Source of the DNA: Hormiphora californensis
Taxonomy: Eukaryota; Animalia; Ctenophora
NCBI GenBank assembly: GCA_020137815.1
Contig: CM035351.1
Span: 372,001 to 436,000 of the forward strand
Reading direction: 5' to 3'
DNA: 64,000 nt
Made by a program: the position numbers and the translations under genes. Positions 16,088 through 52,790 of this stretch are shown in pieces. Below the pieces are notes generated by a model that had not been told where the DNA came from, ran no database searches, and saw only the letters and a program-made list of their open reading frames with translations. Numbering within the stretch: position 1 is the first letter of the stretch; each line of letters opens with the position of its first letter.

Positions 16088-16580
16088 GTGAGGGGGAGGG
16101 GGGATTATACAGGAGTATGGGGGAAGTTGAACATGGGAGAGACATTTACTTCATAGACATGAATCATGTCATGATAGATGATTCAAGAGAGAGAACTGTA
16201 ATTGTATGAACTAAAATAGGTAGACGGGGAAGCCAGGGCGGGTGGTTAAGAAACAGAGAGAAATATAATTGTGCAAGAATTCAAGTAATTTACAAAGCAT
16301 ATATTTTACAGCACACAGTACACACACACATTTCACCATCAATATGAGAGAGGGTCAGTTTCACAGTGAATTTTAGGGGTCAACCAGCATTTGGGACAGA
16401 AATTGTGAGCGGGGCTATTCCTGACCGCCCGTAGGACTATCCCTTGGCCCGTTAGCGACAGTATACAGTCTTTCATAATCCACAACACACAAATAAATTG
16501 TCAATGTCTACCGATCACTGTCTGGCAGTGCCGATCTGAGAATCAAAACGGGACCAGACAGATGAAACACACAGCAGTGT

Positions 16581-17918: not shown

Positions 17919-17955
17919 ATTACATGTGCTAAAGAGAGGGGTACGTGGTTTGGGA

Positions 17956-18024
<69 letters not shown>

Positions 18025-18141
18025 AACTAGAGAGAGGTACGTGGTTTTGGACGGTTGGCAGAGAGAGAGAGAGAGTGAGAGAGAGAGAGAACTAGAGATA
18101 GAGACCACTGAGAGAGAAAGAGAGAGAAAGAGAGAGAGAGG

Positions 18142-18272
18142 GCCTCTAGGGCCCTGTCAATTGTGTCTAGGGTACGGGGCTGGCTCACCGCATCTGTCAG
18201 AACTGCCTGGGAGGTCTCTCCTAGGGCGTCTACCAATAGGGACTGGGAGGACATGGACATGAGCTATTATAC
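18142..18272 (-). pseudogene. 5' fragment of the POLE4-like gene at the duplication breakpoint
   Basis: Near-identical to 15957-16087; runs into a (CT)n tract. Confidence 0.85.
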
Positions 18273-18746
18273 ATGGGGGAGGGGAGTTATACAGGAGTAT
18301 GGGGGAAGTTGAACATGGGAGAGACATTTAGTTCATAGACATGATAGATGATTCAAGAGAGAGAACTGTAATTGAACTAAAATAGGTAGACGGGGAGGCC
18401 AGGGCGGGTGGTTAAGAAATGGAGAGAAATATAATTGTGCAAGAATTCAAGTAATTTACAAAGCATATATTTTACAGCACACAGTACACACACACATTTC
18501 ACCATCAATATGAGAGAGGGTCAGTTTCACAGTGAATTTTAGGGGTCAACCAGCATTTGGGACAGAAATTGTGAGCGGGGCTATTCCTGACCGCCCGTAG
18601 GACTATCCCTTGGCCCGTTAGCGACAGTATACAGTCTTTCATAATCCACAACACACAAATAAATTGTCAATGTCTACCGATCACTGTCTGGCAGTGCCGA
18701 TCTGAGAATCAAAACGGGACCAGACAGATGAAACACACAGCAGTGT

Positions 18747-20084
18747 TCAAGACCTCGCTCCCTCCATAAAGACATGTTTGAGTGGTTTCATAAGGTTAAT
18801 AATCCCAACACCCTTGCTCCGTAGCGCCACCACTGGTTCCGCAGAGACCCCATATAACCTCTGGATAGCGTCAATAAAGGCCAACATGGGCACTGCCAGT
18901 CTCTGTTGCTTCGTTTCATACTTGTTCAACACCCGATAATCACCGATATCTAACTCAGGAGAACTCTCAATAGCGCTGACAAGCTCCCTCACTCCCCTGT
19001 ACCCAATATTGGCACCTTGCCCAGCCAGAGGATGGACTCTATGGGCTGCATCTCCAACCAAAGCCACCCTGGGTCCGACATACCGGGCAGAGTTACTAAA
19101 ACCAAGGGGGAACTTGGCTCTGGGGCCCACCAACTCCGCGATGTTGGGAGAGTGGGGTGTCTCGTGAAGGAGACCCAGCCCCTCCCAGATATTATCCATA
19201 GCAGCTACAACACCAGAGGACCGGGGTTCAGCATGGAGGGCAGCGTTAACCCTCCCTACAAACTCATCTCCATCCATATCAGTCAGCTCCTGGGCCATTG
19301 ATGTGGAGCAAGACCACACAAGGGAGTAGAGACCACCATTACCCAGGGGTAGGAGTGCGATAGGGCCCCCGGGTAGGAACCTCTGGTATGCAGTGTCCAT
19401 GGGACTGGTACCTGGATCACCCTGTAATACACACACCACCCCGTGCTGACCATACTTCCAGGACACAACAGGCACATCCAGGGTCCGCCTCACCATAGAG
19501 TTAGCACCGTCTGCACCAACCACTAAATTAGCGGTGTGACTCTTCCCGGACTCCAGATCTAGAGACACAGGACCACGAAGATCATCTTGGGGCAGGGTCA
19601 GCTTTGCAACCCGTTCTCCCCTCCTTGTTTCCACATTATGTGCTCTGGAGAGGACTGTGTTAGTGGCCTCCTCCAGAATATTGTTTTCCACGATATACCC
19701 CATGGGGTCAGCGTCAAAACTAATGGCCTGCCGGGACCGGGTCTCCCAGCACTGGATCTTGGTGTACAAGTGAGATCTCATCTTCTCTACCTCCGACCAG
19801 ACACCAAGTCGCTGCAGAAACTGCTGTGTGCCGACCGTGACATTTATAACTCTTAAATTGAACGGGTCAGAACTGTCGAAGGGGGCAGGTTCTTTGACCG
19901 CCTCATCGAGGAACAGGATGGATTTACCCTCCATACGGTCAATGAGAGAGAGGGAAGTTGCAGCCGCAGTTCCAATTAGACCCCCACCAATGACTACCGC
20001 GTCGTAATGGGCCGGCCTCTTAGAGGACAGACAGCTGCTGGGTAGCATACATGATGAGGTGAGGATACGTCTGGATAACAGCAT
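18747..20084 (-). CDS. COQ6: Ubiquinone biosynthesis monooxygenase COQ6, copy 2
   Basis: 445 aa, with about a dozen amino-acid differences from copy 1. Confidence 0.93.
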   Translation of the reverse strand: MLLSRRILTSSCMLPSSCLSSKRPAHYDAVVIGGGLIGTAAATSLSLIDRMEGKSILFLDEAVKEPAPFDSSDPFNLRVINVTVGTQQFLQRLGVWSEVEKMRSHLYTKIQCWETRSRQAISFDADPMGYIVENNILEEATNTVLSRAHNVETRRGERVAKLTLPQDDLRGPVSLDLESGKSHTANLVVGADGANSMVRRTLDVPVVSWKYGQHGVVCVLQGDPGTSPMDTAYQRFLPGGPIALLPLGNGGLYSLVWSCSTSMAQELTDMDGDEFVGRVNAALHAEPRSSGVVAAMDNIWEGLGLLHETPHSPNIAELVGPRAKFPLGFSNSARYVGPRVALVGDAAHRVHPLAGQGANIGYRGVRELVSAIESSPELDIGDYRVLNKYETKQQRLAVPMLAFIDAIQRLYGVSAEPVVALRSKGVGIINLMKPLKHVFMEGARS

Positions 20085-20128
20085 ATTACATGTGCTAAAT
20101 AGAGAGAGGTACGTGGTTTGGAAGGGTT

Positions 20129-20298
<170 letters not shown>

Positions 20299-20852
20299 AG
20301 AGAACTAGAGATAAGGACGGGATTTTGAGGGTTGACATGGGCTAGGGAGAGAGGTACGTGGTTTGAGACGGTTGGCTGAGAGAGAGGGGGAGAGAGAACT
20401 AGAGAGAGGTACGTGGTTTGGGACGGTGGGCAGAGAGAGAGAGAGAACTAGAGATAGAGACCACTGAGAGAGAGGGAGAGATACCACTGACACAAAAAAC
20501 ACAGAACACAGAAATCAGCTACGACGAGCAATGACAACGAGAGAGACAGGAAGAAAACATGACAGAAGAAAACAAGACAGGGCCCAGGGGGAAACAAGAC
20601 AGTAGTCACCTGACCCGCTCTCGCACTTTGTACTGTGCTATCAAAGAGAGGTCAGGAACGGAGATACACTTCACATTTTATGAATTGGCTTGTTTTGGGT
20701 AGGGGGAGTTATCAGGCGTCGGTCCTGACCTCTCTTCGACTTCGCAGATAGCGCGGCGAGTGGGTGTCAGGCGACGCCTGCCAACTTGATTGGACACAAA
20801 ATGAAATGGACTCAGTTTCGGTTGTTGTAAAAACTAAAAAGAACAAAGAAAT

Positions 20853-30121: not shown

Positions 30122-31097
30122 GACTGTTAGAGGTGGGCTTAGAGCTACAAAATCACGAAAAGAGTGGTTTGAAGAAAAATTTGTCGAACGACCGAAAAAA
30201 AAAAATCTGGAACGTGATTTAAAAATTACATCTCATTCTGTCGCGCGCGTTGAATTGCCGCGTAAAAGTAATTATTTTCGCGCGTTACTGCTTTTAAAAT
30301 TTTGAAGAAATGACTCGGATCTTGAGAACGCGGATACGGTTCTGTCTCCTCAGAAGTACCTTGGTCTCACTGAGGGGCACGAGGAAAAAGTTCACGACTC
30401 CACCTCCCATCGCAATGTGTGATTTTACTGACTGACTTTTTATTTGTAATATTTATTGTTTATTTGAGTGAGTGATTTTAAGATTTATTTATTTATTACT
30501 AACCCCAACACCGGGGGCAAATGATCGAACCCAATGTGAATGAGACTCATCGCGATTAACTCTTCATACGGTTACCCCCTTTCTCTCTTCGGCAGCTTCT
30601 CTTCGGCTGTCGGAAAGTGATGCCAATCGGTGTTGGGGTTAAGAAACTCGGATCTTGCAGTGAAAAGAAAAAAGTCCAGACTTTCGAAAAAAGTTTTTCA
30701 AAAAAAAGTTTTAAAAGTTTTAAAACTTTGAAAACTGAAAAGTGCTGCCTTATCCCTGTTTGCCAACGCGTCCATGGACTTTCCAAGCGCTCTCAGATTG
30801 TTAAAATCATCGTGAAAACGTCAGTAACTGGATCCTGCTCACAGGGGCTCTGCCCTATAACACCCCGCGTGGCCTGTGCCCATGAGCTCTGGCCTTTACT
30901 TGTGGAGGGGTTCACCCACGGCTCCTGGCTGCTATATCAGGCTCCAGAAGCATGGGACACACTGTGCGGGAGGGCGGAGGCTCAGCTCCTTCCCTGTAAA
31001 AAAACGTTTTTGTCTGTCAAAATTGAATGGCACTCTTCAGTTATCGACCCCATTCGGTGATCCAACAACCAACGTTAATTTCCAATTTTAGCTATAC

Positions 31098-34000
31098 CAG
31101 GGTGTGAACTGCATGTCGTGTTTGCTAGTCGCGAGCGCACTTGCGAGACAAGCAAACACGTCAAGGTTCATTAACAAGCATGCTGCTCAGTCATTTTAGA
31201 TTTAATACACAATGTAAGGATACCATGTAATAGGTGAGACTCTTGCCGTCACCCTTGTTCAAGTCCCGTGAAAAACGGAGCAGTACACGCAAACTGATGC
31301 CCATTTTCCTCGCGTGACCCCGATTCAGCAGTTTGAGACACCAACTCTTTAGGGGGCCATATCTCAGGAACCAGACAAGATAGGAAAAATCGCCGTCTAA
31401 CGAGGCGTACAGTTTTTAATCTAGTTTACCACTGTACCGGCCGTTTCACTCTCCGACCTAAAACAAAAATCGCAACCCCACAAAACTTCAAAATAATGAA
31501 ATTCGCATCTCGCATGTCGTGTTGCATGTCGTGTTGCATGTCGTGTCATGTTATTGACGCGCTCGCGTTCAACTCTCACACAGCAGCAGCAGAACATGGC
31601 GGGAAACATCGAGGAATAGAGAGAGGGTCGGTGCCGAATCAAATATTTCTTGATCTTGATCTACTCCATCTCTCAGCTATCCTACCCCTCATCAACTCGA
31701 TCTCTCAGCTACCCTACCCCTCATCTACTCCATCTTTCAGCTACCCTACCCCTCATCTACTCTATCTTTCAGCTACCCTACCCCTTATCTAGTCCATCTC
31801 TCAGCTACCCTACTCCATCTCTCAGCTTCCCTATTAGGGAAGCATAGAGATGGAAACGATTAGGGGTAGGGAATCCCTATCCATAATCGTTTCCATCTCT
31901 CAGCTTCCCAACCTCCCATTTACTCCATCTCTCAGCTTCCCTACCTCCCATTTACTCCATCTCTCAGCTACCCAACCTCCCATTCACTCCATCTCTCAGC
32001 TTCCCAACCTCCCATTTACTCCATCTCTCAGCTTCCCTACCTCCCATTTACTCCATCTTTCAGCTACCCAACCTCCCATTCACTCCATCTATCAGCTACC
32101 CTACCTCCCATTTACTCCATCTCTCAGCTACCCAACCTCCCATTCACTCCATCTATCAGCTTCCCAACCTCCCATTTACTCCATCTCTCAGCTTCCCTAC
32201 CTCCCATTTACTCCATCTCTCAGCTACCCAACCTCCCATTCACTCCATCTATCAGCTTCCCTACCTCCCATTTACTCCATCTCTCAGCTACCCAACCTCC
32301 CATTCACTCCATCTCTCAGCTTCCCAACCTCCCATTTACTCCATCTCTCAGCTTCCCTACCTCCCATTTACTCCATCTCTCAGCTACCCAACCTCCCATT
32401 CACTCCATCTATCAGCTACCCTACCTCCCATTTACTCCATCTCTCAGCTACCCAACCTCCCATTCACTCCATCTATCAGCTACCCTACCTCCCATTTATT
32501 CCATCTCTCAGCTTCCCTACCTCCCATTTACTCCATCTCTCAGCTTCCCTACCTCCCATTTACTCCATCTCTCAGCTTACCTACCTCCCATTTACTCCAT
32601 ATCTCAGCTTACCTACCTCCCATTTACTCCATATCTCAGCTTCCCTACCTCCCATTTACTCCATCTCTCAGCTTACCTACCTCCCATTTACTCCATTTCT
32701 AAGCTTCCCTGCCTGCCATTTACTCCATCTCTCAGTTTCCCTACCTCCCATTTACTCCATTTCTCAGCTTCCCTACCTCCCATTTACTCCATTTCTCAGC
32801 TACCCTACCTCCCATTTACTCCATCTCTCAGCTTCCCAACCTCCCATTTACTCCATCTCTCAGCTACCCTACCTCCCATTTACTCCATCTCTCAGCTTCC
32901 CTACCTCCCATTCACTCCATATCTCAGCTTCCCTACCTCCCATTTACTCCATCTCTCAGCTTACCTACCTCCCATTTAATCCATCTCTCAGCTTCCCTAC
33001 CTCCCATTTACTCCATCTCTCAGCTTCCCTACCTCCCATTTACTCCATCTCTCAGCTACCCAACCTCCCATTCACTCCATCTATCAGCTACCCTACCTCC
33101 CATTTACTCCATCTCTCAGCTTCCCTACCTCCCATTTACTCCATCCCTCAGCTTCCCTACCTCCCATTTACTCCATCCCTGCCTCCCATTTACTCCATCT
33201 CTCAGCTACCCTACCTCCTATTCACTCCATCTCTCAGCTTCCCTACCTCCCATTTACTCCATCCCTCAGCTTCCCTACCTCCCATTTACTCCATCCCTGC
33301 TTCCCATTTCCTCCATCTCTCAGCTTCCCTACCTCCCATTTACTCCATCTCTCATTTATCATAACATTCCTACCCCTAAGAGATGGAGTAAATGGGAGGT
33401 AGGTAAGCTGAGAGATGGAGTAAATGGGAGGTAGGGTAGCTGAGAGAAGGAGTAAATGGGAAGTAGGGTAGCTGAGAGATGGAGTAAATGGGAGGTAGGG
33501 AAGCTGAGAGATGGAGTAAGTGGAGGTAGGGTAGGTGAGAGATGGAGTAAATGGGAGGAAGGGAAGCTGATAGATGGAGTAAATGGAAGGTAAGGTAGCT
33601 GAGAGATGGAGTAAATGGGAGGTAGGGAAGCTGAGAGATGGAGTAAATGGGAGGTAGGGTAGCTGAGAGATGGAGTAAATGGGAGGTAGGGAAGCTGAGA
33701 GATGGAGTAAATGAGAGGTAGGGAAGCTGAGAAATGGAGTAAATGGGAGGTAGGGAAACTGAGAGATGGATCAAATGGGAGGTAGGGTAGCTAAGGTATG
33801 GAGTAAATGGCAGGTAGGGAAGCTGAGAAATGGAGTAAATGGGAGGTAGATAAGCTGAGAGATGGAGTAAATGGGAGGTAGGGAAGCTGAGATATGGAGT
33901 AAATGGGAGGTAGGTAAGCTGAGCGATGGAGTAAATGGGAGGCAGGGAAGCTGAGAGATGGAGTAAATGGGAGGTAGGGAAGCTGAGAGATGGAATAAAT

Positions 34001-35087
34001 GGGAGGTAGGGTAGCTGATAGATGGAGTGAATGGGAGGTTGGGTAGCTGAGGGATGGAGTAAATGGGAGGTAGGGTAGCTGATAGATGGAGTGAATGGGA
34101 GGTTGGGTAGCTGAGAGATGGAGTAAATGGGAGGTAGGGAAGCTGAGAGATGGAGTAAATGGGAGGTTGGGAAGCTGAGAGATGGAGTGAATGGGAGGTT
34201 GGGTAGCTGAGAGATGGAGTAAATGGGAGGTTGGGTAGCTGAGAGATGGAGTAAATGGGAGGTAGGGAAGCTGAGAGATGGAGTAAATGGGAGGTAGGGA
34301 AGCTGAGAGATGGAAACGATTATGGATAGGGATTCCCTACCCTTAATCGTTTCCATCTCTATGCTTCCCTAATAGGGTAGCTGAGAGATGGACTAGATAA
34401 GGGGTAGGGTAGCTTAAAGATAGAGTAGATGAGGGGTAGGGTAGCTGAAAGATGGAGTAGATGAGGGGTAGGGTAGCTGAGAGATCGAATTGATGAGGGG
34501 TAGGATAGCTGAGAGATGGAGTAGATCAAGATCAAGAAATATTTGATTCGGCACCGACCCTCTCTCTACTCCTCGATGTTTCCCGCCATGTTCTGCTGCT
34601 GCTGTGTGAGAGTTGAACGCGAGCGCGTCAATAACATGACACGACATGCAACACGACATGCAACACGACATGCGAGATGCGAATTTCATTATTTTGAAGT
34701 TTTGTGGGGTTGCGATTTTTGTTTTAGGTCGGAGAGTGAAACGGCCGGTACAGTGGTAAACTAGATTAAAAACTGTACGCCTCGTTAGACGGCGATTTTT
34801 CCTATCTTGTCTGGTTCCTGAGATATGGCCCCCTAAAGAGTTGGTGTCTCAAACTGCTGAATCGGGGTTACGCGAGGAAAATGGGCATCAGTTTGCGTGT
34901 ACTGCTCCGTTTTTCACGGGACTTGAACGAGGGTGACGGCAAGAGTCTCACCTATTACATGGTATCCTTACATTGTGTATTAAATCTAAAATGACTGAGC
35001 AGCATGCTTGGTAATGAACCTTGACGTGTTTGCTTGTCTCGCAAGTGCGCTCGCGACTAGCAAACACGACATGCAGTTCACACCCTG
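31098..35087. mobile_element. 4-kb foldback non-autonomous element with CAGGG termini, about 750-bp unique arms and inverted 32-bp minisatellite arrays
   Basis: CAGGGTGTGAACTGCATGTCGTG...CACGACATGCAGTTCACACCCTG; arms are reverse complements; repeat unit CCATCTCTCAGCTTCCCTACCTCCCATTTACT; centre at about 33353-33378; flanked by TATAC on both sides. Confidence 0.85.
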
Positions 35088-35447
35088 TATACAAGGTACA
35101 GATTCAATCTGTCAGAAGTCTGTTGTTTTATTTTGTGGTTTTATTGTGTTGAGGTGATCTTATTTCTATGAGTTGAGTAACAGACTACTCAGTATATTAT
35201 TTAGCCTAGCTGCCCTCTTTCTGTCCGACTAATCAAAATATGACTATGAGCACTGAAGACAAAAAAAAAGAGGGCTGCTCATTGAGCAGCCCTCTTTTTT
35301 CTCTTCGTAGTTTGACTCCGTCTCGGCTGACCCGCCTTTAGTTAAAGTCATCACGGGGTCAATCATTTATATTCAATGCATCGCTGTTAGCACTGTTTAG
35401 CCTGTCACTAATGGTACACGTACATTTATATCTCTCAATTTTATCGT

Positions 35448-36090
35448 AAATTTTCTATGTCAATTTTTGCGTACGAATCGTGTTTCGAATCGGCAATGCT
35501 ATACGGGAATGGTATTGCTAATTAGCAGGATTAAACGAACCATGACTCGTGTCTCTCTAAATTTCCTAATTAGATTTGATGGGGGATCACGTATCAGCAC
35601 AATCCATCTCGGACCCACTAAATACCAACATTACTCCCGTTTAGCATTGTCGATTAGAAACACGATTCGTATACCATAATTTACTTAAAATATTTTTCAC
35701 AAAAAAAATTTCACAAAATTTCAGGTAATGATTCTCAATACCTTGATCGATGCTCTCCATGAGTTTTTAGAGAAACATTTAATTTTGTGAAAAAAACTTT
35801 GTAAAATATTTCAAAGTCAATTTCGGGAAAAGAAAAAAAATTATATGTCAATTTTGCCGTACGAATCGTGTTGCGAATCGGTGATGCTATGCGGCAGTGC
35901 TCTCGCTAATTAGCAGGATTTATTGAAACATGAATCGTTTCCCCTAAACTTCCTAATTAGATTTGATGTGGGATCACGTATCAGCATTCAGTATAATCCA
36001 TCTCGGACCCACTAATTAAGCAACATCACTCCCGCTTAGCAATACCGATTCGAAACACGATTCGTACGCAAAAATTGACATAGAAAATTT
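35448..36090. mobile_element. Pair of related MITE-like inverted-repeat elements
   Basis: TGTCAATTTTTGCGTACGAATCGTGTTTCGAATCGG...CCGATTCGAAACACGATTCGTACGCAAAAATTGACA; duplicated at about 39252-40325. Confidence 0.7.
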
Positions 36091-36495
36091 TCCATAAAAT
36101 TGACTTTGAAATATTTTCCAAACTTTTTTTACAAAATTTCAGAGAATGATTCTTAACACCTTGATCGGTGCAGCCTACTGCGGTGCAGCCTACTGCAGTA
36201 CTACTTTCAGACTGCACATAGTGAGATAGGGAGAAGCAAGGTGTTTTCCCACTATGGTGTTGTTAGATATTGTGCAATGTGTGATCTAACATGTGTTGAA
36301 GTAAAGCTATGTGGTCTCTCTATCTTTTTTCCATCTACTAGCGCACCCACCGGGTGCGCCTCAAGTAAGGACTGTTTACTCTGGGGTGCTCTTTATTCAC
36401 ATACGCCAAAATCATGGTTGTCATGGCAACTGCAACGGTAACTATGGGGACTGAATTGTTAAATTCATCCGAAAGTATTACTATTCACGAACTCC

Positions 36496-36855
36496 CAAGG
36501 AATTAAACTTGATGACGCTGCTAAAGGTATGTAGCCACCAACCCCCAACCCCCGCAATTACTAGATGAGGTGCTTGTCCCCCCCCCCCCCCCCGTATGTA
36601 GCCACCCCCCCCCCCCCGTATGTAGCCACCCCCCCCCCCCCGGTATGTGTGGTGTGATCTGCTAGATGGGGTGCTTGTTTTGTAAGATAACACCTGAGAA
36701 AGAGTCTGATATCTCCCCCCCCCCCCCATTTCAGCTGCTGATATAGTGCGAGCCATTGAGACGTGTACTGGAATGGAGGTGTTGAACCTGGCAGGTAATA
36801 CCCTTGGTGTGGAGGCTGCTCAGGAGATTGCTAACGCCCTACAGAGTAGACCTAC
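36496..36855 (+). pseudogene. RanGAP1 5' fragment (end of exon 1, intron 1, exon 2) lacking the start codon
   Basis: Near-identical to 41318-41626; ends at the segmental duplication junction. Confidence 0.88.
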
Positions 36856-37060: not shown

Positions 37061-38887
37061 CCAGGGTGTGAACTGCATGTCGTGTTTGCTAGTCGCGAGC
37101 GCACTTGCGAGACAAGCAAACACTGAGAGATGGAGTAAATGGGAGGTAGGGAAGCTGAGAGATGGAGTAAATGGGAGGTAGGTAAGCTGAGAGATGGAGT
37201 AAATGGGAGGTAGGGTAGCTGAGAGATGGAGTAAATGGGAAGTAGGGTAGCTGAGAGATGGAGTAAATGGGAGGTAGGGAAGCTGAGAGATGGAGTAAAT
37301 GGGAGGTAGGGTAGGTGAGAGATGGAGTAAATGGGAGGAAGGGAAGCTGAGAGATGGAGTAAATGGAAGGTAAGGTAGCTGAGAGATGGAGTAAATGGGA
37401 GGTAGGGAAGCTGACAGATGGAGTAAATGGGAGGTAGGGTAGCTGAGAGATGGAGTAAATGGGAGGTAGGGAAGCTGAGAGATGGAGTAAATGAGAGGTA
37501 GGGAAGCTGAGAAATGGAGTAAATGGGAGGTAGGGAAACTGAGAGATGGATCAAATGGGAGGTAGGGTAGCTAAGGGATGGAGTAAATGGCAGGTAGGGA
37601 AGCTGAGAAATGGAGTAAATGGGAGGTAGGTAAGCTGAGAGATGGAGTAAATGGGAGGTAGGGAAGCTGAGATATGGAGTAAATGGGAGGTAGGTAAGCT
37701 GAGAGATGGAGTAAATGGGAGGCAGGGAAGCTGAGAGATGGAGTAAATGGGAGGTAGGGAAGCTGAGAGATGGAATAAATGGGAGGTAGGGTAGCTGATA
37801 GATGGAGTGAATGGGAGGTTGGGTAGCTGAGGGATGGAGTAAATGGGAGGTAGGGTAGCTGATAGATGGAGTGAATGGGAGGTTGGGTAGCTGAGATATG
37901 GAGTAAATGGGAGGTAGGGAAGCTGAGAGATGGAGTAAATGGGAGGTTGGGAAGCTGAGAGATGGAGTGAATGGGAGGTTGGGTAGCTGAGAGATGGAGT
38001 AAATGGGAGGTTGGGTAGCTGAGAGATGAAGTAAATGGGAGGTAGGGAAGCTGAGAGATGGAGTAAATGGGAGGTAGGGAAGCTGAGAGATGGAAACGAT
38101 TATGGATAGGGATTCCCTACCCTTAATCGTTTCCATCTCTATGCTTCCCTAATAGGGAAGCTGAGAGATGGAGTAGGGTAGCTGAGAGATGGACTAGATA
38201 AGGGGTAGGGTAGCTTAAAGATAGAGTAGATGAGGGGTAGGGTAGCTGAAAGATGGAGTAGATGAGGGGTAGGGTAGCTGAGAGATCGAATTGATGAGGG
38301 GTAGGATAGCTGAGAGATGGAGTAGATCAAGATCAAGAAATATTTGATTCGGCACCGACCCTCTCTCTACTCCTCGATGTTTCCCGCCATGTTCTGCTGC
38401 TGCTGTGTGAGAGTTGAACGCGAGCGCGTCAATAACATGACACGACATACAACACGACATGCAACACGACATGCGAGATGCGAATTTCATTATTTTGAAG
38501 TTTTGTGGGGTTGCGATTTTTGTTTTAGGTCGGAGAGTGAAACGGCCGGTACAGTGGTAAACTAGATTAAAAACTGTACGCCTCGTTAGACGGCGATTTT
38601 TCCTATCTTTTCTGGTTCCTGAGATATGGCCCCCTAAAGAGTTGGTGTCTCAAACTGCTGAATCGGGGTTACGCGAGGAAAATGGGCATAAGTTTGCGTG
38701 TACTGCTCCGTTTTTCACGGGACTTGAACGAGGGTGACGGCAAGAGTCTCACCTATTACATGGTATCCTTACATTGTGTATTAAATCTAAAATGACTGAG
38801 CAGCATGCTTGTTAATGAACCTTGACGTGTTTGCTTGTCTCGCAAGTGCGCTCGCGACTAGCAAACACGACATGCAGTTCACACCCT
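37061..38887. mobile_element. Second copy of the CAGGG element, with the left arm reduced to a TIR of about 62 bp
   Basis: Same termini, same 32-bp array and same right arm as 33378-35087. Confidence 0.85.
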
Positions 38888-39501
38888 GTATTATACAAGG
38901 TACAGATTCAATCTGTCAGAAGTCTGTTGTTTTATTTTGTGGTTTTATTGTGTTGAGGTGATCTTATTTCTATGAGTTGAGTAACAGACTACTCAAAATA
39001 TTATTTAGCCTAGCTGCCCTCTTTCTGTCCGACTAATCAAAATATGACTATGAGCACTGAAGACAAAAAAAAAGAGGGCTGCTCATTGAGCAGCCCTCTT
39101 TTTTCTCTTCGTAGTTTGACTCCGTCTCGGCTGACCCGCCTTTAGTTAAAGTCATCACGGGGTCAATCATTTATATTCAATGCATCGCTGTTAGCACTGT
39201 TTAGCCTGTCACTAATGGTACACGTACATTTATATCTCTCAATTTTATCGTAAATTTTCTATGTCAATTTTTGCGTACGAATCGTGTTTCGAATCGGCAA
39301 TGCTATACGGGAATGGTATTGCTAATTAGCAGGATTAAACGAACCATGACTCGTGTCTCTCTAAATTTCCTAATTAGATTTGATGGGGGATCACGTATCA
39401 GCACAATCCATCTCGGACCCACTAATTACCAACATTACTCCCGTTTAGCATTGTCGATTAGAAACACGATTCGTATACCATAATTTACTTAAAATATTTT
39501 T

Positions 39502-41246: not shown

Positions 41247-44150
41247 ATGGCACAAACGTTAGCAGACACCCTGGCCCAGTGTAATGTGGAAGACTCCGCC
41301 ATTGTGTCATTCGAGGGTCAAGGAATTAAACTTGATGATGCTGCTAAAGGTATGTAGCCACCAACCCCCACCCCCCGCAATTACTAGATGAGGTGCTTGT
41401 CCCCCCCCCCCCCCCGGTATGTGTGGTGTGATCTGCTAGATGGGGTGCTTGTTTTGTAAGATAACACCTGAGAAAGAGTCTGATATCTCCCCCCCCCCCA
41501 TTTCAGCTGCTGATATAGTGCGAGCCATTGAGACGTGTACTGGGATGGAGGTGTTGAACCTGGCAGGTAATACACTTGGTGTGGAGGCCGCACAGGAGAT
41601 TGCTAATGCCCTACAGAGTAGACCTACACTGAAGGTATGTAGAGATATATCCATTATCCCTGGCCCCACCAGTTAAACTACCCCTGTCTCACAGGACCCA
41701 TAATACTAACAGTGTTACTCCCATCTATTCAGTATGCCCTCTGGAAGGACATGTATACGGGACGTCTCCGGTCTGAAATACCTCCATCCCTGAGGGCCCT
41801 ATCTGGAGCAATGATCACCGCAGGAACACAACTTGTAGAACTAGATCTATCAGATAATGCATTTGGTCCGGATGGTGCGGAGGCGATCAGGGGTCTTCTG
41901 ACCAGCCCTGTAGCGTACACTATCAAAACACTAAAGTTTCAGAATAATGGATTAGGAGGGGGTGGAGTGGTGAGTAACATCAATTATTATTAGCATCAAT
42001 TATGATTAGGGTCAATACTCAATTTGGTGTTATTAAAAATCCCCCCGGTCCCCTGGGCCCTGGTATTATTTCTAGACAATTGAACCCCCTGTCATCATTA
42101 GATAATCGCTGATTGCTTGATGACCAACCACGAGAGAGCTAAGAAGGCCGGTAAATCCCTTGATTTGAGGACCTTCATCGCGGGACGAAATAGACTGGAA
42201 AACCCCGGAGCTACCGCCCTTGCTAAAGCGTTCTCGGTAGGTTCAAACGTTCACTTTGACAGTTTTGACATGAATACCTCCGCGTCTATATGATGGATAC
42301 ATTCCATTAACCACACTCGACCTAAAACCCCTCTTGGACCAAGATTCTTGATACACTAGATAGATCCTATAACACCCCTCTCTTGATACACTAGATACAT
42401 TAACAAGATAGACAACGATATAATGGTACTAAATCAAATAAATTGACAGAAGCTTTCGAGATCACTGTGTATCACGTCTTCAGCTACACTAGATACACTC
42501 TCGCCAAGTCCTAACACCCCTCCCTCTCTCGACTAGATGATTGGTACACTAGATAATAGATATGTTTCCACCTAACACCCCCTCTCTCTCTCCACTAGAT
42601 GATTGGTACACTGGAACAGATAGAGGTGATTCAGAATGGTATTCAATATGAGGGGATAGCTGCTATTGCTGACTGTATCAAACACAGCCCTAACCTGAGG
42701 ATTCTAAATCTCAACGATAATATCATGACACCCAAAGGGGCCATTGCCATTGCTAAGGTACACGGGTGGTTGTAGACGGGTCTTCTTCCAATGTTCGGCT
42801 GTCTGATTTTCTATCTACTGCGCTTCAGTTGGCCTTTCTGTTACATAGTTGTTTCGAATCTAATCCTAGTTCCAACACCTGATTTCCCTCAGGCGTTACC
42901 CAGTGCCCAGAAACTGGAGGTTCTGAATATTGGAGATTGTCTGGTTAAGAGTGAGGGTGCTCTGGCTGTTGCTGAAAACATATCCGGTCTCACATCCCTC
43001 AAGGTATGCTACTTAATTCTGTAATAAATTAGCAGAGAAAGTGATTGTCTGTGATGTTTGATGGATAGAGACTCCAGAGGGAGTCTCTACTCCTTTGAAT
43101 TTCAAGACCCAGCTCGGATGTAGATGTAACGCGCGGTGATCTGTTTGTGTTGAAAGTTAGCATTTACAACAATTTCGCGCCATCATCTGTCCGCTCTACA
43201 CACTCGCGGAGTGAACCCAACTTTTGAAATTAGCCGGTATGTCATCACCCGAAGTCCCATTGCTGACAGCCATAACTTTCAGGAGTTGGTTCTGAGTTAT
43301 AATGAGATTAGAACTGATGGCGGGGTTGCTATTGGTAAAGCGTGTTCCTCTCTCTCCGCTCTGACGGTGTTGGATCTAGATGGAAACCAGTTTGGAGATG
43401 ATGGGAAGAAACAGGTAACTTCATTGTGTCTTATCGAGATCTCTGGTCAAGTTATTTTATTAATTACTTCCTTCCCTTGCTCGACTGTCTTTCACTTTGG
43501 CTTGAACAAAACAATTACCCCCCCCCCCCCAAAATAATCCCCAATATTTCCGACAACTAACTCCATCCAGGTGAGTGACTCCCTCGGTTACTCCCCCCCA
43601 CAAGTAGTAACTCCAACTCCTTTTACCCCCAGGTGAGCGACTCCCTTGGTTCTGCTATTGGTATTCTCCAGCCTGGTCTCAGTGAGGATGTTGGAATCCC
43701 TTCAGACGATGAGGAAGAAGAGGAGGCAGAGAAGAAGGATGAAACCCCTGCAGCAGCACCTGTACTTGGGGGATCTCCCTTTGTGTTTGGACAGAGCACC
43801 GCTCCCCCAAAACTGGTCGGGGGAGATGAAAAAGGAGGGTTTGGGTTCGGGGCTCCTTCTACCGGAGGATTCAGTTTTGGGTCTGTGACAGGTTGGTTTC
43901 AATTTTAAAATATATCAACTACCGCCACCTTCTATCGATATCGTGTATTTGAATTCATTTAACTTTATGGCTTGTTACTTGTCAGGGACGAACATATTCG
44001 CTGATAAGGGGAACAGTGAGTTCAAATTCAAGGGGGCTGGAGCTTCACTATTTTCAAAGCCAGCAGAAGCAGGTCAGTGAAATTAAAAACCAAATCACCA
44101 ATTGGAGTATGAATATTGAACAATTAGTTTTACGAGAGTGAAGTAAGCTG

Positions 44151-44184
<34 letters not shown>

Positions 44185-47100
44185 GGTGACGATAACCCAG
44201 AACAAGAGGCAGATGTTCAGTTTGAGCCCCTGGTTCAGCTCACCAAGGTAGATACGAAAAGTGGTGAGGAGGACGATTGTGAGATTTACAAACACAGAGC
44301 TAAACTATTCAGGTAACTATGTGAGGTGTACAAACACAGAGCTAAACTATTCAGGTAACTATGTGAGGTGTACAAACACAGAGCTAAACTATTCAGGTAA
44401 CTATGTGAGGTGTACAAACACAGAGCTAAACTATTCAGGTAACTATGTGAGGTGTAACTAGGTAACCCTGGTGGTGTGCCAAACACTCACAAACAAACGA
44501 TCCAACAGAGTTAGAGAAACGAACTAACTCATATGTTTGACCACATTCCAGGTTTGACGGTGATGCTAATATGTGGAAAGAAAGGGGGGTTGGAGACATG
44601 AGGATTCTCCAAGATAAATTCACCAAGAAATCTCGACTTCTCATGAGACGAGATATCATCCTGAAGATCTGCTGTAACCATCTCATTACCAAGGCGATGG
44701 ACATGCTACCGAATGCGGGCAGTGATAAGTCTCTTGTAAGTCTTGGTGTAATTTGGGGTTTTTGGTAACTGATTCAGCCCTCCCTCGACCAACTCAGAGG
44801 TTTTTAACCTACTTACACAACTATACAGGGTGTCCCATTGTCTTTATGCGACCTGCTGTCCTGTACTATCACTCCCAATTCTTCTCTCCGCAGGTTTGTA
44901 CTATAATGTACTATAATGTACTTCTCCGCAGGTTTGGTTTACCAGTTCTGACTACGCCGAGGGGGAGCCCAAAGCAGAGAGACTTGCAATTCGGTTCAAG
45001 ACTGCAGCCATCTGCCAGTCGTTCCTAGAGGCATTTACTAAGGCAAAGGAAGAGTCACCTGAACCAGGCAGTACTCCTGAGAAAAAGAAACCACCCACGG
45101 AGTCTGTGCCATCCTTTGGTATTTTAGCTGCTAGTGGGGATAAAGCTCCCTTCGCAGCTCTGGGTACCACAACCACTGCTAGCCCTGTTAAAGAGAGTGG
45201 GTTGAGGGAGGAGACTGATACCTATGAGCCAGATGTGCAGTTTACCCCTCTGGTAACATTGGAGAAGGTTGAGACTACTTCTGGGACTGAGGACGAGGAG
45301 ACAAAGTTTATACACCGATGCAAACTGTACAGGTGGGTGTGTGGATAGTTTTATCATATTATCATCTTTATTAGTAGTGGATCCCAGCCGTAATCCCTCT
45401 ATCTTCGAATGTCTTTTCCCTTTCTAATCCCTGCACATTTGACATTATTCCCATGGAATGGATACCACCCGCCCTTCCTAGTATTTGCCTAGCTAGACTG
45501 TGTTTCGCGCGCCCGCTCGCGAAACACAAATGTAAAGAAGGGTTATGTAAAGAAGGGTTAGAACATAACAACCTAGTATAATGCTAAACATTTGACCCAC
45601 TTAGGTTTGATAAGGATACCAGCCAGTGGAAGGAGCGAGGTTTGGGTGACATTAGTGTAATGTGGAACAAGAGGGCGGGTAAAGCTAGGATCCTGATGAG
45701 AAGAGAACAAGTCCTAAAGATCTGCTGCAACCACTCTGTAACACCCGAGATGAAGCTGGATTACAAACAGGGTGAGCAACGTGATGATTAACTTGAGTCA
45801 CTCACTTTAGGTTGACAGAGGATATAATGATGTTTTACAGCCTGTAAAACATCATATCCTCTGCAGTCTGCTGCCTCCAGTGAGCACCCTGTATAACTGG
45901 AGAATATAGTTTTGAAGCATGACTTTACAATTAAAATTAATTCCAGGTAACGATAAGTTCCTCATGTGGCACACCTTTGCTGATTTTTCTGATGGAGAAC
46001 AGAGGTTTGAGCAACTAGCGGCGAGGTTCAAAACAGCCGAGGCTGCTTCTGGGTTCAAATCTGCTTTTGATGAGTGCCAGTCTAACCTAGGAAAGGTAAA
46101 TGTTCTGATTCTTGAAATGTTTGAGTGTGTAATTTGGTCTTCACATGGGTGCTTGTAGTCAGAATACGGTATCGGTTCAACACGGTATGAGTGAAAAACG
46201 GTAAGACGAGACCAATCAGAGCGCCAGATTGAAATCACGTGATTCCTGTCGATACCGAAATATATATGTATTTCAAATATATATGTATTTCAGAAACCGT
46301 AATGGTCAAATACCGTATTATTCAGACACTGTATTCCCACTACAAGCAGCACTGTTAGATTCAACTCTACCCGTTCGTTTATTCACCGGGCCAGTATTGA
46401 CATTGTTCTCCCATTACAGGTGGATCTCAGTGAGGACCCATCCAGTAAGGAGGCCAGTAAGGCGATAGAGAAGGTATCTCTGACAGAGACAGATGGTTCT
46501 GAATCAGCAGTTAGCAAGCCTGCTGAGGGAGGTGGAATTGCGGATTTCATTGCTGCACAGAAACTAAAGTGGACGTGTGACGTGTGTGGGTTGAAGAACG
46601 ATCAGGCTGCTATGTTGTGTATTGCATGCCAGGCACCCAACCCTAATGCACCTGTCGTAGCCCCAGGAGGTGGAGCAGATACCGCCACACCAGCGGCTGT
46701 ACCTTCTTTCACTTTCGGGTGTGCTACCGGTGCAGGACCAGCTGCCTTCAGTTTTGGGAACAAACCAGCTGTCCCCGCCGCTACTACCTTCTCATTTGGA
46801 AATGCTACAACCACACCAGCTGCAGCACCAACGTTCAGCTTTGGTAATACCCCCGCTTCCAATACTTTCCAGTTTGGGGCTCCAGCTCCTGCTACAAAGA
46901 CACCGGAGAAAGAGCCCGCCAAACCGTCACCATTCGCCGGGTTTGAGTTTGGGCCTCGCACTACCACCACCGTTGCAGCTACAGTCAACTGGGATGCTTT
47001 TGTAACTACACCAACAGAAACCGATCTGAAGGGAATATCTGACCCCAAGGTAAGGAAGAATGGAGGGGGGAACAGGGCCGGGATGGGGTTTATCATGCGT

Positions 47101-47568
47101 TCATCTAACTTGATCATAAAGGTCGAATTTAAGAAGAAATTTGTCTACCGAGAGCCCACACCTCCCAAACTCTAACACATCTCTCATTCACAGGCTGTTC
47201 TTAACGCCCTGGACACGGCTAACGCATCCAAGACTGCAGCATTTATTGGACGGCTATCTAAAGTCGTAACCAATGAAACTACAGATACCTGTCAAAAAAT
47301 GGTGAATGCTGTTCTGGCTTCTTCGTACGAGTCATGTAACCATGCGTTCCTGACGAACGAGCTGCTGATAACACTAGACTTCATAAAGAGTGAGGACAAA
47401 GATTTCAAACCGGTATCCGATACTGATGCCATGCTCAATCTCATCTCCAAAACCATCGCTGAGCCGTTCTTCCCTGAGACGAGCAAGAAAACAGTGGCTG
47501 CGTTCGTCCGGAAAGAAGCAAAGAAGATTAAAAACAGTGCCACCGTGATTGAACGATTTGAGATCTGA
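41247..47568 (+). CDS. RANGAP1: RanGAP1 with two internal RanBD, a RanBP2-type zinc finger and FG repeats; 16 exons
   Basis: LRR domain ([45 protein letters not shown]), acidic tract, RanBD1 (RAKLFRF...WKERGVG...LKICCNH...LAIRFK), RanBD2 (RCKLYRF...WKERGLG...LAARFK), [10 protein letters not shown]...CIAC, C-terminal [12 protein letters not shown]. All 15 GT-AG junctions keep phase. Confidence 0.9.
44287..44457 (+). repeat. 42-bp tandem repeat of an exon end plus 5' splice site (4 copies)
   Basis: TACAAACACAGAGCTAAACTATTCAG|GTAACTATGTGAGGTG. Confidence 0.9.
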
Positions 47569-48022
47569 GCTCGTTTTGAATTGTTTATATGCGAGTTGGT
47601 AGACTATCTGAGCTCACTGCGATGTGATCACTGTGAATCACATTGCGATGTGGGGCTGCGATACTGATTGTGTTCTAACCGGTGCGAAAATTTGAAGCTT
47701 TCGCTTTTTACCCTCAGTAAATGGTGTACATTTTGTGTCGAACTAACAAATATATCAGCTTGTGTGGCAAGGAACGGACCGGTGCACCTTCAAATGACGT
47801 CATTCTAAAGGTGCGCGCAAAGATATTTCGCGCAGAGTTGTCACAAAAATGCGCGTTTACGAACTCAAACTTTGAATTTCGGGTTCCAGCTCATCTTGTT
47901 TTTTTAAAACTTTTTGAAACTTTTTGAGTTTTCCTGGGCCGTCTTAATTTTGATGTATGACGTCAAACTTATTACTTTATCACTGCAATTTTCCATCTTT
48001 ATAATTTTTTGTTCGCAGGGGC

Positions 48023-51000
48023 ATGTTCCGAAACTGGTCAGATAAGAAAAATGAAGCTGTCAAGAACACCGGAACCGAGTTTGTGGCACGGGACTACCAG
48101 CTGGAGATGTTGGAGAGAGCCAAAAAGGAGAACAGTATCGTAATGTTACCTACAGGTGCTGGAAAAACTTATGTAGCTGTTCTACTCATCCGCCATTTCC
48201 TTCACGAAGTATTTACCGATCCTTTGTGGGAAGGAAACAGGAATGGAGATCCAAACTGGAAGCGAACATTTTTTCTTGTGAATCAAGTTACTTTAGTGGG
48301 ACAACAGGCAAAGGTTCTTAGGAGTCATCTTGGGGTACAAGTAGCCGAGATTTCAGGAAACTCTAAAAATGTGGATAATTGGGATAAAGCATCGTGGTAT
48401 CAGCAGTTCAAAAAGAGTCAACTGTTTGTAATGACAGCGGCGATTTTCCGTGATCTGCTCGCCAATGGGTTCATCAAGGCAAGAAACGTGAATGTCCTCA
48501 TTCTGGACGAGTGCCATCATGTAAAGAAGAACCATACCATGACAGTGATTATGAGAGACTATTGGAATGTAGAGCAACCACCCGGCAGAGTTCTCGGTCT
48601 AACTGCATCTGTTGTGGATGAGAAGAATGTGAACACTGATAACACTCGGGGTATAGAGCAGCTGATCAATAACCTTCAAGCAATCCTCAAAGCTCGATTG
48701 ATCACTCCAAAGGAGTTCACATTTGATGAAAGCCTTCTTCCATCGCCCGAGATTAGAAAGTTCGACACTGCAAAGTATGGTATTCATCTGTTAACCTGTT
48801 TGTCCAACATCGAAACAGTTTTTGCGGGAGTTGACACCAAAGAACTACCTGTTGAGGAGCAGTCACCCTATCGTCACATCAAGAAGTTCGCCACAAGTTT
48901 GCCCAAGATTATTCGGGAAGTTGGTGTTGATTCTCTGTTGACCTACTTGACTTCTGATCGAGGCCTCATCGTCGAATTGGACAACCTGCTTTGTAATGAG
49001 ATCCTAGCGCCGATTGAGGTGGATGGTAAAACACAGGAGCGATTCACATACATGATTGGAAAGGTCCTTAAAAACAAACTTCAACAGTTGAGTAACATCG
49101 CTATGCACGTCCTAGAAGAGTCTAAGGAAGTCAGAATGGCGCCAAAGTTCTACTCTCTCGTAAAGTTGATACTGGAATTACAAGCCACCAGCAACAACAC
49201 ATCTCGTATCATCGTCTTTATTGAAACAAGACGTGTGGTTCAAGCCATGTACAGTTACATAAGGGAGCTTGCAGACAAGGTGAAAAGTTGTCAAAACATG
49301 AAAGTTGCCTACGTCCTGGGAGGCACATCGTCTGGTGAGCTCCAGGATCGACAGAACATGTCCGAATTTGAGTTTGCTGAAATGGAGGTGGCTAAGAAAA
49401 AACAAGAACGAGCACTCCTCAACTTTAGGGAGGGGAAATGTAACATTTTGTTAGCGACAAGTGTGGTTGAAGAGGGTCTGGATATCCCGGCGTGTAATGT
49501 TGTCATTCGTTACGATTTCCCGCAAACCTATCGGGCTTTTGTGCAGAGCAGGGGTCGAGCACGACAGAAACCAGCCCGATTTGTGTTCTTCATCCCCGAG
49601 CACGAGATGGCTGAGAGAAAGATGCTCCTGGATAAGTTCAATAAAGTTGAGAAGTTGCTAACTAGCTTTGCTGTAAGTAGTGGTGAGGAACTTGATTTTG
49701 ACGATGTAGAGGACTCAGATTATAGTAGACTTATTGCCCCTCTCCAAATAGAAGGGTCACCTGCAAAGATTACTGCTATCGACTGTATACAACGGCTCAA
49801 TTTCTACTGTGAACAGCTCCCGAAGGATGAGTATACCTCAAACAGACCGGTGGACACCCTGGAGGGTGGTCCAGGTGCTTATACAACCACTATTGTCCTC
49901 CCCAAGCTGTGTCCCATAGATCACCCTATCAAGGGTGATAGGATGCCTAACAAGAAACTAGCCAAGATGTCAGCTGCTAGGAACGCTTTGTGGGCGCTAT
50001 GGGAGGCAGGCGAGTTATCTGATGTGTTCCTTCCTATATTCCGACAAAAGGAAAGTGATACTCTGCCAATTGAATCTGAGGAGGGACGAACTGTGACAGT
50101 AGATCAGAAACTAAAAGTCCCCACAATCTTCTGGCGGAAAGATCTGGGTTCACAGGAGCTGTTCCTCTACTCAATCCGGGTATCTCTGGAACCGAACAGT
50201 CCTGATTTCAAGGAGTATTTTGTCCAGGGCAAGAGTCACAAAGTTGTTTGTTTTGGTATCATTACAACTGAGAAAACTCCCCGAACCGTTTCCAGTATTT
50301 GACGTCTTCCCCCGTTATGGAACGGTAACTGTCCGGTTTGTGTTCGAGAAGACGCTTGAAGTTCCCCCTGCATCTCTCAATCGTATGAAGTGGTTCCAAG
50401 AGGCTCTGTTCATTCACACTCTAGAGATAAAGGCTCTGAGTAGCATCCTAAATGCCAGATTCAAGGACTTCCTAGTGGTGCCACTATGTATGAAGCGAGG
50501 TCTGAAGAAGAGTGCCACACTTGAAGTTGATACAAGGTTCATTGAGCAGCTAAGAAAACAGTGGGACTCAGAACATAACCACTGGAAGTTTGGGAACATC
50601 CCTGAAAAGGAAGAGGATTGTGTGGATTGCGTGTTGTTCGCTCACTACAAGTTCCCAACGCATCACAACAATAACCTGATAGGATCCTTCCTCTACGTGG
50701 TGGAAGGAGTTTCAGAGACCATGACTGCAGAGAGCAGGTTACAGGGGAAGAGGGAGGATGGGATGACGTATCTACAGTATCATCAGGAGAAGGGTCAGGA
50801 AATACAGAGACCGGGGCAGAAGCTGCTAACAGCTCGAAACGTAACAAGGCACTATGAGTACCTGAGTGGCGGTAAATCTGGACAGTATAAAATTAACATG
50901 CTACTTGTTGGGGAAATTCACCAAGTTCACCCCATGCCGTCCTCTTTGTGGAATCAAGCTACTTGTCTACCTTCTATCTTGTGGAGACTAGAAACGTGTC

Positions 51001-52790
51001 TTCTAGCACACGAACTAACCAACACACTGTACAAAGAAACAGAGCTGACAATCACCCTTCTGGCTTCTAAATACAACGACTATTTTAGAGAGGAGGTCTC
51101 TAACTTGATGGCAAAACTCCAACGAAACCAGCGATATAATGGCCCTATAGACTGGTTAGAGACTCTTCATGCGATTACCCACAAGGCCTGTAAGGCAGGA
51201 TTCAGTCTGGAGAGATTGGAATACCTGGGGGATAGGTTCCTGAAGTTCGTCTCCACCCTGTATTACTACCGGGTTATGCCTGATAAACACGAGGGGTGGC
51301 TGAGCAGGTTCCGGAGCGAGATGGTTTGTAATAAGAATCTAGCGATCAGATGTAGTAGAACCCTATCATTACCCCGGTATATTCTAAACAAGAATGTTGA
51401 CCCTGGTAAACATTGGATCCCGCCCACACTCCTACCTGAGCGGGTTGTCAAGGGTCTAGCCACTGCTTCCCAACTCCTCGAGAACCCCTGTGATCCCGAG
51501 GGTCTAACGGACAAGGAACGGGAGCAGATGCACGTGCAGAGGAAGTCAGCATTGCAGTGCGCTGAGGTGGACAAGTTCCTGAAGGCAGAACCTGTTGAAT
51601 CGGTAGAGGAATCGTTGGAGAAGTTGTGTGATTTGATACCAGATGAGCTACTTCAGAGGCTGAGCATCAAGGATATTGCAGATAGTATGGAGTCTCTGAT
51701 TGGTTTGTGCGTCAGTCGGTACGGGTATAAGATGGCGGTAGAGTTGATTGATAAGATAGCGATATCTACATTTGAGGGTACTGAGGGAGGACCCCGGTTG
51801 CTGGGTGACTATCTCTACCAACCCACACCCGCACCTGTAATATACAGCAAATCAGAGAGCCAGCAGCGGATAGGACGGGCTCGGTGTCGGGACTTGGCGG
51901 GGCTCCAGGAGACCCTTGGTTACACCTTCAGAGAGCCGCTCTACTTGTTGGAGGCAGTAACCCACGCTACCTTCACTGACATTGATGTGTGTTATCAGAG
52001 GTTGGAGTTTCTGGGGGATGCAGTCCTTGATGTCTTAATGGTGTTCAAGTTTTACGAAGAGAAACCAGAGTACGACCAAGGAGAACTATCCAAACTTCTA
52101 TCCTCCCTGGTGTGTAACACAACCCTCTCCAAAGTGTGTATCCAGCTAGGAATACACCGGTATCTCCTCTACACCTCTCCAGAACTGTACAGCACTCTTG
52201 CTCGATTCTACGCTAACTTTGAGGAACAAGAACTAAAGGAATGGGTCAGCAGTATGACACTAGAGCGGGTGATTGTGGGGAGTATTGCTAGTGACACCCT
52301 TGAGGAGCAGCCCGTAGTAGATCTAGACAGTAAGGTGGTACAAGCCCCCAAGTTGTTAGGTGATCTGGTGGAGGCTGTGATTGGCGCCATCTACCTGGAC
52401 TGTGGGGAGGACATGGAGGTAGTTTGGAGAGTCATATGGCCATGGTTCAGTAAGTTTTACAATGCATACCGGGATAACCCGCCTCAGAATCCACGGGATC
52501 TGGTGAATCTGAGGTGTCCTGGGAACAGGAGGGAGGTGCTGGACCTGCCTGGTAATCAATTCAAAGTGTGTGCTAAAGTTAGTATCGGTGGGGATTACGT
52601 GAAGGGGAAGCAGACACCGGTATATGAGTTTGTAACAACAGGGAGGGATAGAGAGACCGCCATGGATGTGTGTTTTGGTAGGGCTTGGGTCTTCTATAAG
52701 AACTTCCTGGACCCAGACAGGGCGGTGGTGGTGGATCCCCAGGAGGGACCTAGTGGGATGGATCCCCAGGAGGGACCTAGTGGGTCTTAG
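48023..52790 (+). CDS. DICER1: Dicer (DExH helicase, DUF283, PAZ region, two RNase III domains), intronless, with one +1 frameshift at about 50273-50276
   Basis: RDYQLE, LPTGAGKT, ILDECHH, GLTAS, ATSVVEEGLDIP, QSRGRAR; LNFYCEQLPKD (DUF283); LPSILWRL; ERLEYLGDRFL; IADSMESLIG; YQRLEFLGDAVLD; PKLLGDLVEAVIGAIYLD. Confidence 0.93.

Follow-up and report, generated by a model that had tools for sequence, protein, structure and literature searches.

The window, the 64,000-nucleotide stretch of Hormiphora californensis DNA analyzed here, contains at 41247..47568 of the plus strand a RanGAP1 gene into which a cassette of Ran-binding domains (RanBDs), a zinc finger, and FG repeats is inserted. The gene was assembled from splice sites and then translated, and comprises 16 exons at 41247-41349, 41507-41634, 41733-41969, 42102-42236, 42599-42757, 42893-43003, 43283-43414, 43633-43891, 43986-44072, 44186-44312, 44552-44735, 44932-45332, 45605-45771, 45947-46095, 46420-47049, and 47194-47568. 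All 15 introns, 94-362 nt in length, are GT-AG, and the spliced coding sequence of 3384 nt yields a predicted open frame of 1127 aa with no internal stop, which bears out the claim of an earlier, sequence-only reading of this DNA that the 16 exons splice in phase. Exon boundaries at residues 35, 77, 156, 201, and 254 of the protein are also found in other genomic RanGAP loci, and by these common boundaries and its grouping in trees the gene is a RanGAP1 ortholog. Possible alternative splice sites include four copies of the exon 10 donor in a 42-bp repeat at 44278-44456 and second copies of three acceptors (42537, 43571, 44894) a short way upstream of those in the model.

Several other features lie in the window. 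At 35764-36855 lies a truncated copy, 97-99% identical, that takes in the region upstream of RanGAP, a portion of exon 1 lacking the ATG, intron 1, and the greater part of exon 2. It is either a transposon capture or an assembly duplicate, and adjoins a 2.3-kb element that is itself duplicated (33376-35697 and 37155-39501, 98%) and contains a 32-bp minisatellite; an inverted copy of the element lies at 31094-32863. The adjoining Dicer gene (48005-52790) is read in two long frames that overlap, the frame changing once near 50283 at a short run of A, reflecting either an assembly indel or a broken copy. A tandem 2.2-kb duplicate (93%) at 15957-20303 carries two intronless FAD monooxygenase genes, which we take to be COQ6-like, and a receptor-like gene split over two frames at 11894-13109 of the minus strand is presumably of the seven-transmembrane type.

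Domain organization of the predicted protein

A Pfam scan was run on 12 of the 16 exons. LRR_6 passes the cut-off in exons 3, 5, and 7 and misses it in exon 6; Ran_BP1 falls in exons 10-14 as two split domains, Zn_ribbon_RanBP in exon 15 (E 7.6e-8), and RanGAP1_C in exon 16 (E 7e-10); exon 8 has no Pfam domain. Together with a motif scan, these results give the order read earlier from the letters alone: an LRR GAP followed by the acidic tract and an FG segment, then the two RanBDs and the zinc finger, and finally another FG segment and a C-domain with IKSE. The N-terminal segment (41247..41294) has the hydrophobic spacing (L5, L9, C12, V14) of the Crm1 export signal of human RanGAP1 and is a predicted export signal. 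The LRR GAP domain (41298..43690, by Pfam and the model of the relative P0021) is formed by exons 1-7 and a cap at the start of exon 8, and includes a TGRLR motif at 41757-41771. Exon 3 matches human RanGAP1 with an E value of 2e-27, including the GRLR motif. Arg93 lies near the nucleotide according to a RanGAP structure paper (PMC12246119), and this residue would occupy the GRLR position, assuming that the chain carries a 4-residue tag offset. The GAP had been drawn from 41247 to 43413; the domain itself holds, but its end point does not, as the cap helix and the acidic tract (SDDEEEEE, 43702..43746) continue into exon 8, the exon that also bears the first FG motifs.

The first FG segment (43777..44056, exons 8-9) ends in a motif resembling that before the last RanBD of RanBP2. 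It is followed by RanBD A (44194..45057, exons 10-12) and RanBD B (45217..46092, exons 12-14), both assigned by Pfam and both split at the same Arg codon by a phase-2 intron. Exon 15 encodes the RanBP2-type zinc finger (46558..46644, Pfam) and a second FG segment of FxFG repeats (46702..46953). The C-terminal domain of RanGAP1 (46970..47565, by Pfam, profile, and the P0021 model) has its first helix in exon 15 and the rest in exon 16; the earlier reading was right about its presence and wrong about its start, which falls at the tail of exon 15 (about 46970-47049) rather than within exon 16. Adding the tail of exon 15 (its last 25 residues) brings the score against a profile of 59 canonical C-domains up by 9.5 bits, from 63.6 to 73.1, a level reached by 0 of 500 shuffles. 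The IKSE at 47383..47394 lines up with LKSE in the C-domain chains of human RanGAP1 and, as had been proposed, is the counterpart of the vertebrate motif. A psi-K-x-E site was found in 70 of the 80 C-domains scanned and is kept in all four ctenophore-type sequences.

These additions set the protein apart from animal RanGAP1, with which it shares the LRR with GRLR, the acidic tract, the C-domain with psi-K-x-E, and the common exon boundaries. Between LRR and C-domain the window protein has about 600 extra residues, holding the two RanBDs, zinc finger, and FG repeats, and P0021 has 636, against a median of 37 and a maximum of 335 in 73 other RanGAPs; the window protein has nine FxFG motifs, and none of the 119 other RanGAP matches listed has more than one. 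Several RanBDs, a RanBP2-type zinc finger, and FG repeats are features of RanBP2/Nup358. The N-terminus is that of RanGAP1, and the N-terminal TPR/helical anchor region of Nup358 is absent; neither the IR1-M-IR2 E3 ligase region nor the cyclophilin domain has a Pfam match in P0021 or in a second relative, P0124. The sequence classes the protein as a RanGAP1, one that would work like the RanBP2 complex, and not as a Nup358.

Continuity of the chain in relatives and putative transcripts

Both seams of the insertion lie within exons: exon 8 combines the GAP cap, acidic tract, and FG motifs, and exon 15 combines the zinc finger, FG repeats, and the first C-domain helix. Three proteins (P0021, P0124, and P0278), taken to be ctenophore proteins because they are the nearest relatives, have intact RanBD signature motifs. 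P0021 is a single protein of 1153 aa on a 3751-nt Logan contig and has the same domains as the window protein, with which it is colinear and identical at 645 of 1127 residues (57%) in an alignment over all 16 exons. Its contig is probably a spliced transcript, because 3459 coding bases in 3751 leave no space for introns like those of the window. P0124 (755 aa, a partial call) reads FG-RanBD-RanBD-ZnF-FG-C-domain and is called without the LRR, from a Met within its FG segment, and P0278 (317 aa, also a partial call) is the FG-to-C-domain end of the same architecture. An AlphaFold model of P0021 is confident for the LRR and the C-domain, has RanGAP structures as its best fold matches, leaves the linkers unstructured, and gives low confidence to the RanBDs, where two rows were aligned.

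A sequencing run guessed to be RNA (X1) joins exons 2-3, 4-5, and 10-11 of the window gene on its contigs, and loose contig ends fit the neighbouring exons at joints 1-2, 3-4, 5-6, 11-12, and 12-13. The contigs bridge neither the LRR-RanBD nor the zinc finger-C-domain seam, exons 8, 9, 14, 15, and 16 having no usable cover, a gap that speaks neither for nor against the gene model, and the matches at 43705-43743 being of low complexity. The run bears the same species label and is only 80-95% alike in the exons, suggesting a hidden species or a loose label.

An assembly or gene-model artefact, or a separate RanBD gene nested in the locus, would be in keeping with the apparent frame breaks elsewhere in the window (Dicer near 50283), with the duplicated region just upstream of the RanGAP gene, and with the calling of P0124 without an LRR from a Met in its FG segment. 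This explanation is nevertheless close to refuted, and we consider it very improbable, because the independent P0021 is colinear over the 16 exons and the seams fall within exons; moreover, there is no Met between residues 244 and 500 of the window protein or between residues 342 and 526 of P0021. The seams, P0021, and the exon joins of X1 together uphold the earlier statement that the extra modules sit inside RanGAP1 and do not form one of two neighbouring genes.

Exon 16 can be joined in frame to exon 7, or to phase-0 GT sites within exon 8 (43761, 43782), by skipping what lies between, and short isoforms of the gene are possible. It is improbable that a RanGAP1 shortened in this way is the main product and the long form a minor isoform: the in-frame skip from exon 7 and the cryptic exon 8 donors would permit it, but the modelled exon 8 donor is in phase 1 and exon 16 in phase 0, skipping exon 15 would remove the first C-domain helix, and P0021 is the full form. 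For this architecture, neither outcome named in advance as fatal to the fusion was encountered, the first being transcripts that skip from the acidic exon directly to the last exon with the RanBD exons in a separate nested mRNA, and the second a layout already widespread in databases. As judged from sequence, the window gene is a real RanGAP1 fusion in one chain, conserved in distant relatives.

Rarity of the architecture and source of the cassette

Among the best 120 of 1075 RanGAP matches to exon 3, a RanBD occurs in one, P0021; in this set three named RanGAPs from sponges, several from cnidarians, and many from bilaterians lack it, and no named ctenophore RanGAP is among the matches listed. 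None of 46 metagenome RanGAP loci has a RanBD (ten carry LRR and C-domain in one frame without it, and many others are too short), a metagenome scan using P0021 matched 0 of 588 stretches, and exon 16 searched against longer proteins gave 0 of 321 candidates. By the first two of these counts the architecture is not widespread in databases. No description of this fusion or of the copepod type discussed below was found in literature whose coverage leaves out most subscription journals. The earlier suggestion of novelty survives for the exact layout; the presence of GAP and RanBD in one chain is not unique, a point the earlier reading missed, and recurs in reverse order in 17 Nup358-type proteins. 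A RanGAP1 with a built-in RanBD/ZnF/FG cassette is apparently undescribed so far, and its parts are all well known. RanGAPs with doubled or tripled GAP domains were also seen in nematodes, a bee, and others (P0001, P0013, P0019, P0243, P0305, P0321, and P0339).

The GAP tree groups the window lineage with animal RanGAPs at an unstable place, outside cnidarians and bilaterians in one tree and beside tunicates in others (starred in one); a position with sponges is not rejected (p 0.71). The tunicate affinity was rejected on account of the neighbouring Dicer, which matches that of Mnemiopsis leidyi at 40 of 48 residues in the RNase IIIa core and at 40 of 48 in the IIIb core, the IIIa core agreeing with human IIIa at 25 of 48 (all counted by eye); the resemblance points to a ctenophore. 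Translations of seven neighbouring genes had no exact match (0 of 7).

GAP and RanBD occur together in 18 of 356 stored proteins, P0021 and the 17 others. In most of the 17, the RanGAP LRR is embedded in a chain resembling Nup358, with one to three RanBDs ahead of it and, in records of sufficient length, another RanBD behind it; a C-domain is present in 0 of 17. The named members are sea lice, namely Lepeophtheirus salmonis (RefSeq XP_040581801.1) and, in another cluster, EukProt transcripts of Caligus rogercresseyi, and the database names of these fusions are RanBP2 or Nup153 only. In P0181, P0357, P0177, P0359, and 15 further proteins a whole RanGAP LRR with acidic tract precedes the last RanBD(s) of Nup358, without a C-domain. 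The copepod-type GAP lies near the site where human Nup358 docks SUMO-RanGAP1. Both the copepod and the ctenophore type unite a GAP LRR, an acidic tract, an FG segment, and a RanBD in a single chain, with the same order locally; they differ in that the copepod host is Nup358, with RanBDs upstream of the GAP, no RanGAP1_C, and GAPs placed among arthropods, whereas the window protein is not a GAP inside Nup358 and retains the C-domain. Fifteen of the 17 copepod-type GAPs form a single clade (support 99, starred) among arthropods, P0155 and P0192 having been left out of the tree as near-copies, and three keep this position in a careful tree (97/91). One clade of window-type and copepod-type GAPs is rejected by the AU test under LG+G4 (p 0.029) and not under a mixture model (p 0.082). 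Because their topologies are opposite, the two fusions likely arose separately.

The cassette itself is likely derived from Nup358. RanBD B together with the zinc finger has its best alignment with RBD1 and the first finger of human RanBP2, and RanBD B leans to RBD1; the core of RanBD A scores almost equally against yeast Yrb1 (65.6 bits) and RBD1 of human RanBP2 (64.8 bits). Against a profile built on the stretch that precedes the last RanBD in 43 long RanBP2-like proteins, P0124 scores 22.8 bits, P0021 12.2, and the window segment 13.0, a value reached by 0 of 500 shuffles (maximum 12.6); the 119 other RanGAP matches listed score at most 1.2 bits. The window score is for the segment by itself, the whole protein not being reported in the profile search, and a pairwise search with the P0124 motif gave no match to human RanBP2. 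RanBD trees, which contain no RanBP1 or Nup50 rows, give no donor, and among the matches listed in 747 rows no stand-alone RanBP2-like protein falls within the RanBD A and B clades, a weak result. The two RanBDs are sisters among 64 rows (support 92) and not among 747, and an origin by tandem duplication is not claimed since the sister relation is lost in the larger tree.

A candidate one-chain machine for export-complex disassembly

By analogy with the human system, the product of the window gene is probably, though by no means certainly, a single-chain machine acting at the cytoplasmic side of the pore to break up nuclear export complexes. Human RanBP2 with SUMO1-RanGAP1 and Ubc9 binds Crm1 complexes via two FG patches, its RanBDs release cargo in cis and outcompete RanBP1 in trans, and Ran-GTP is hydrolysed (PMC4866044). 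Cryo-EM of the human complex shows the GAP acting on a Ran that RBD4 holds, next to an FG patch located on Crm1, and identifies the N-terminal export signal of RanGAP1 (PMC12246119). In the ctenophore chain, the FG segments would bind Crm1 and other karyopherins as in human RanBP2, a RanBD of the same chain would grip Ran-GTP with release of cargo, and the LRR GAP, which lies about 100 flexible residues upstream of RanBD A and has its catalytic motif, would trigger hydrolysis without a separate RanBP1 or RanBP2. The C-domain, to go by its IKSE motif, may still bind Ubc9 and take SUMO at the lysine, K1068. The window protein has the same parts as the human machine (GAP, two RanBDs, two FG patches, and C-domain; PMC4866044 and PMC12246119) in one chain, not in a SUMO-bridged complex, and the IR/E3 ligase domain, N-terminal anchor, and cyclophilin were not found in the ctenophore-type protein.

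The window protein may bind the pore, though it lacks the Nup358 N-terminal anchor region. The chain could be real and self-sufficient but soluble, a covalent RanGAP and RanBP1-like co-activator of the bulk cytoplasm whose FG repeats only catch karyopherins. The lack of a Nup358 N-terminal region and of an IR/E3 domain in the Pfam matches, the near-equal scores of RanBD A against Yrb1 and RBD1, and the location of yeast RanGAP away from pores (PMC11825100) fit such a protein; the zinc finger, FxFG repeats, and RanBD-then-zinc-finger order fit the nucleoporin RanBP2 instead, and the retained psi-K-x-E site also speaks for the pore. We regard the soluble form as unlikely, though deserving of serious attention. 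The zinc fingers of Nup153 are of the same type, and Nup50 has FG repeats and a RanBD, so the cassette might serve the nuclear basket or, given that the human RanBP2/RanGAP1 complex goes to kinetochores (PMC12246119), the mitotic spindle, with transport at the cytoplasmic face secondary. An active GAP in the nucleus would, however, drain Ran-GTP, and the N-terminus of the window protein resembles an export signal, which leaves little room for a basket or spindle role.

Disassembly by one chain at the cytoplasmic side, the favoured reading, can be set beside other lineage-specific couplings of RanGAP to the pore or envelope, namely the 23-aa Nup358 motif of flies and the WPP domain of plants (PMC9067512 and PMC11825100); these are non-covalent or consist of a targeting domain only, and the RanGAP chain has no RanBD. 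The reason for the tethering of RanGAP to the pore in many lineages is a stated open question in PMC9067512, according to which cutting the tie has little effect in human cells and causes developmental defects at pupation in flies. The two natural fusions separate the variables of coupling, location, and SUMO: the ctenophore type couples the GAP to RanBDs and FG repeats without the Nup358 anchor, and the copepod type does so with the anchor and without the SUMO domain. The window gene also bears on what the early animal pore's cytoplasmic face was like. A tentative wider proposal, which we hold possible but short of probable, is that ctenophores disassemble export complexes with this single protein in place of Nup358/SUMO-RanGAP1, perhaps without a full Nup358, and that copepods reached the same covalent machine by bringing RanGAP into Nup358. 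If true, GAP-RanBD-FG coupling would have become built in on at least two occasions among animals, and selection would keep the coupling itself, not pore position or SUMO.
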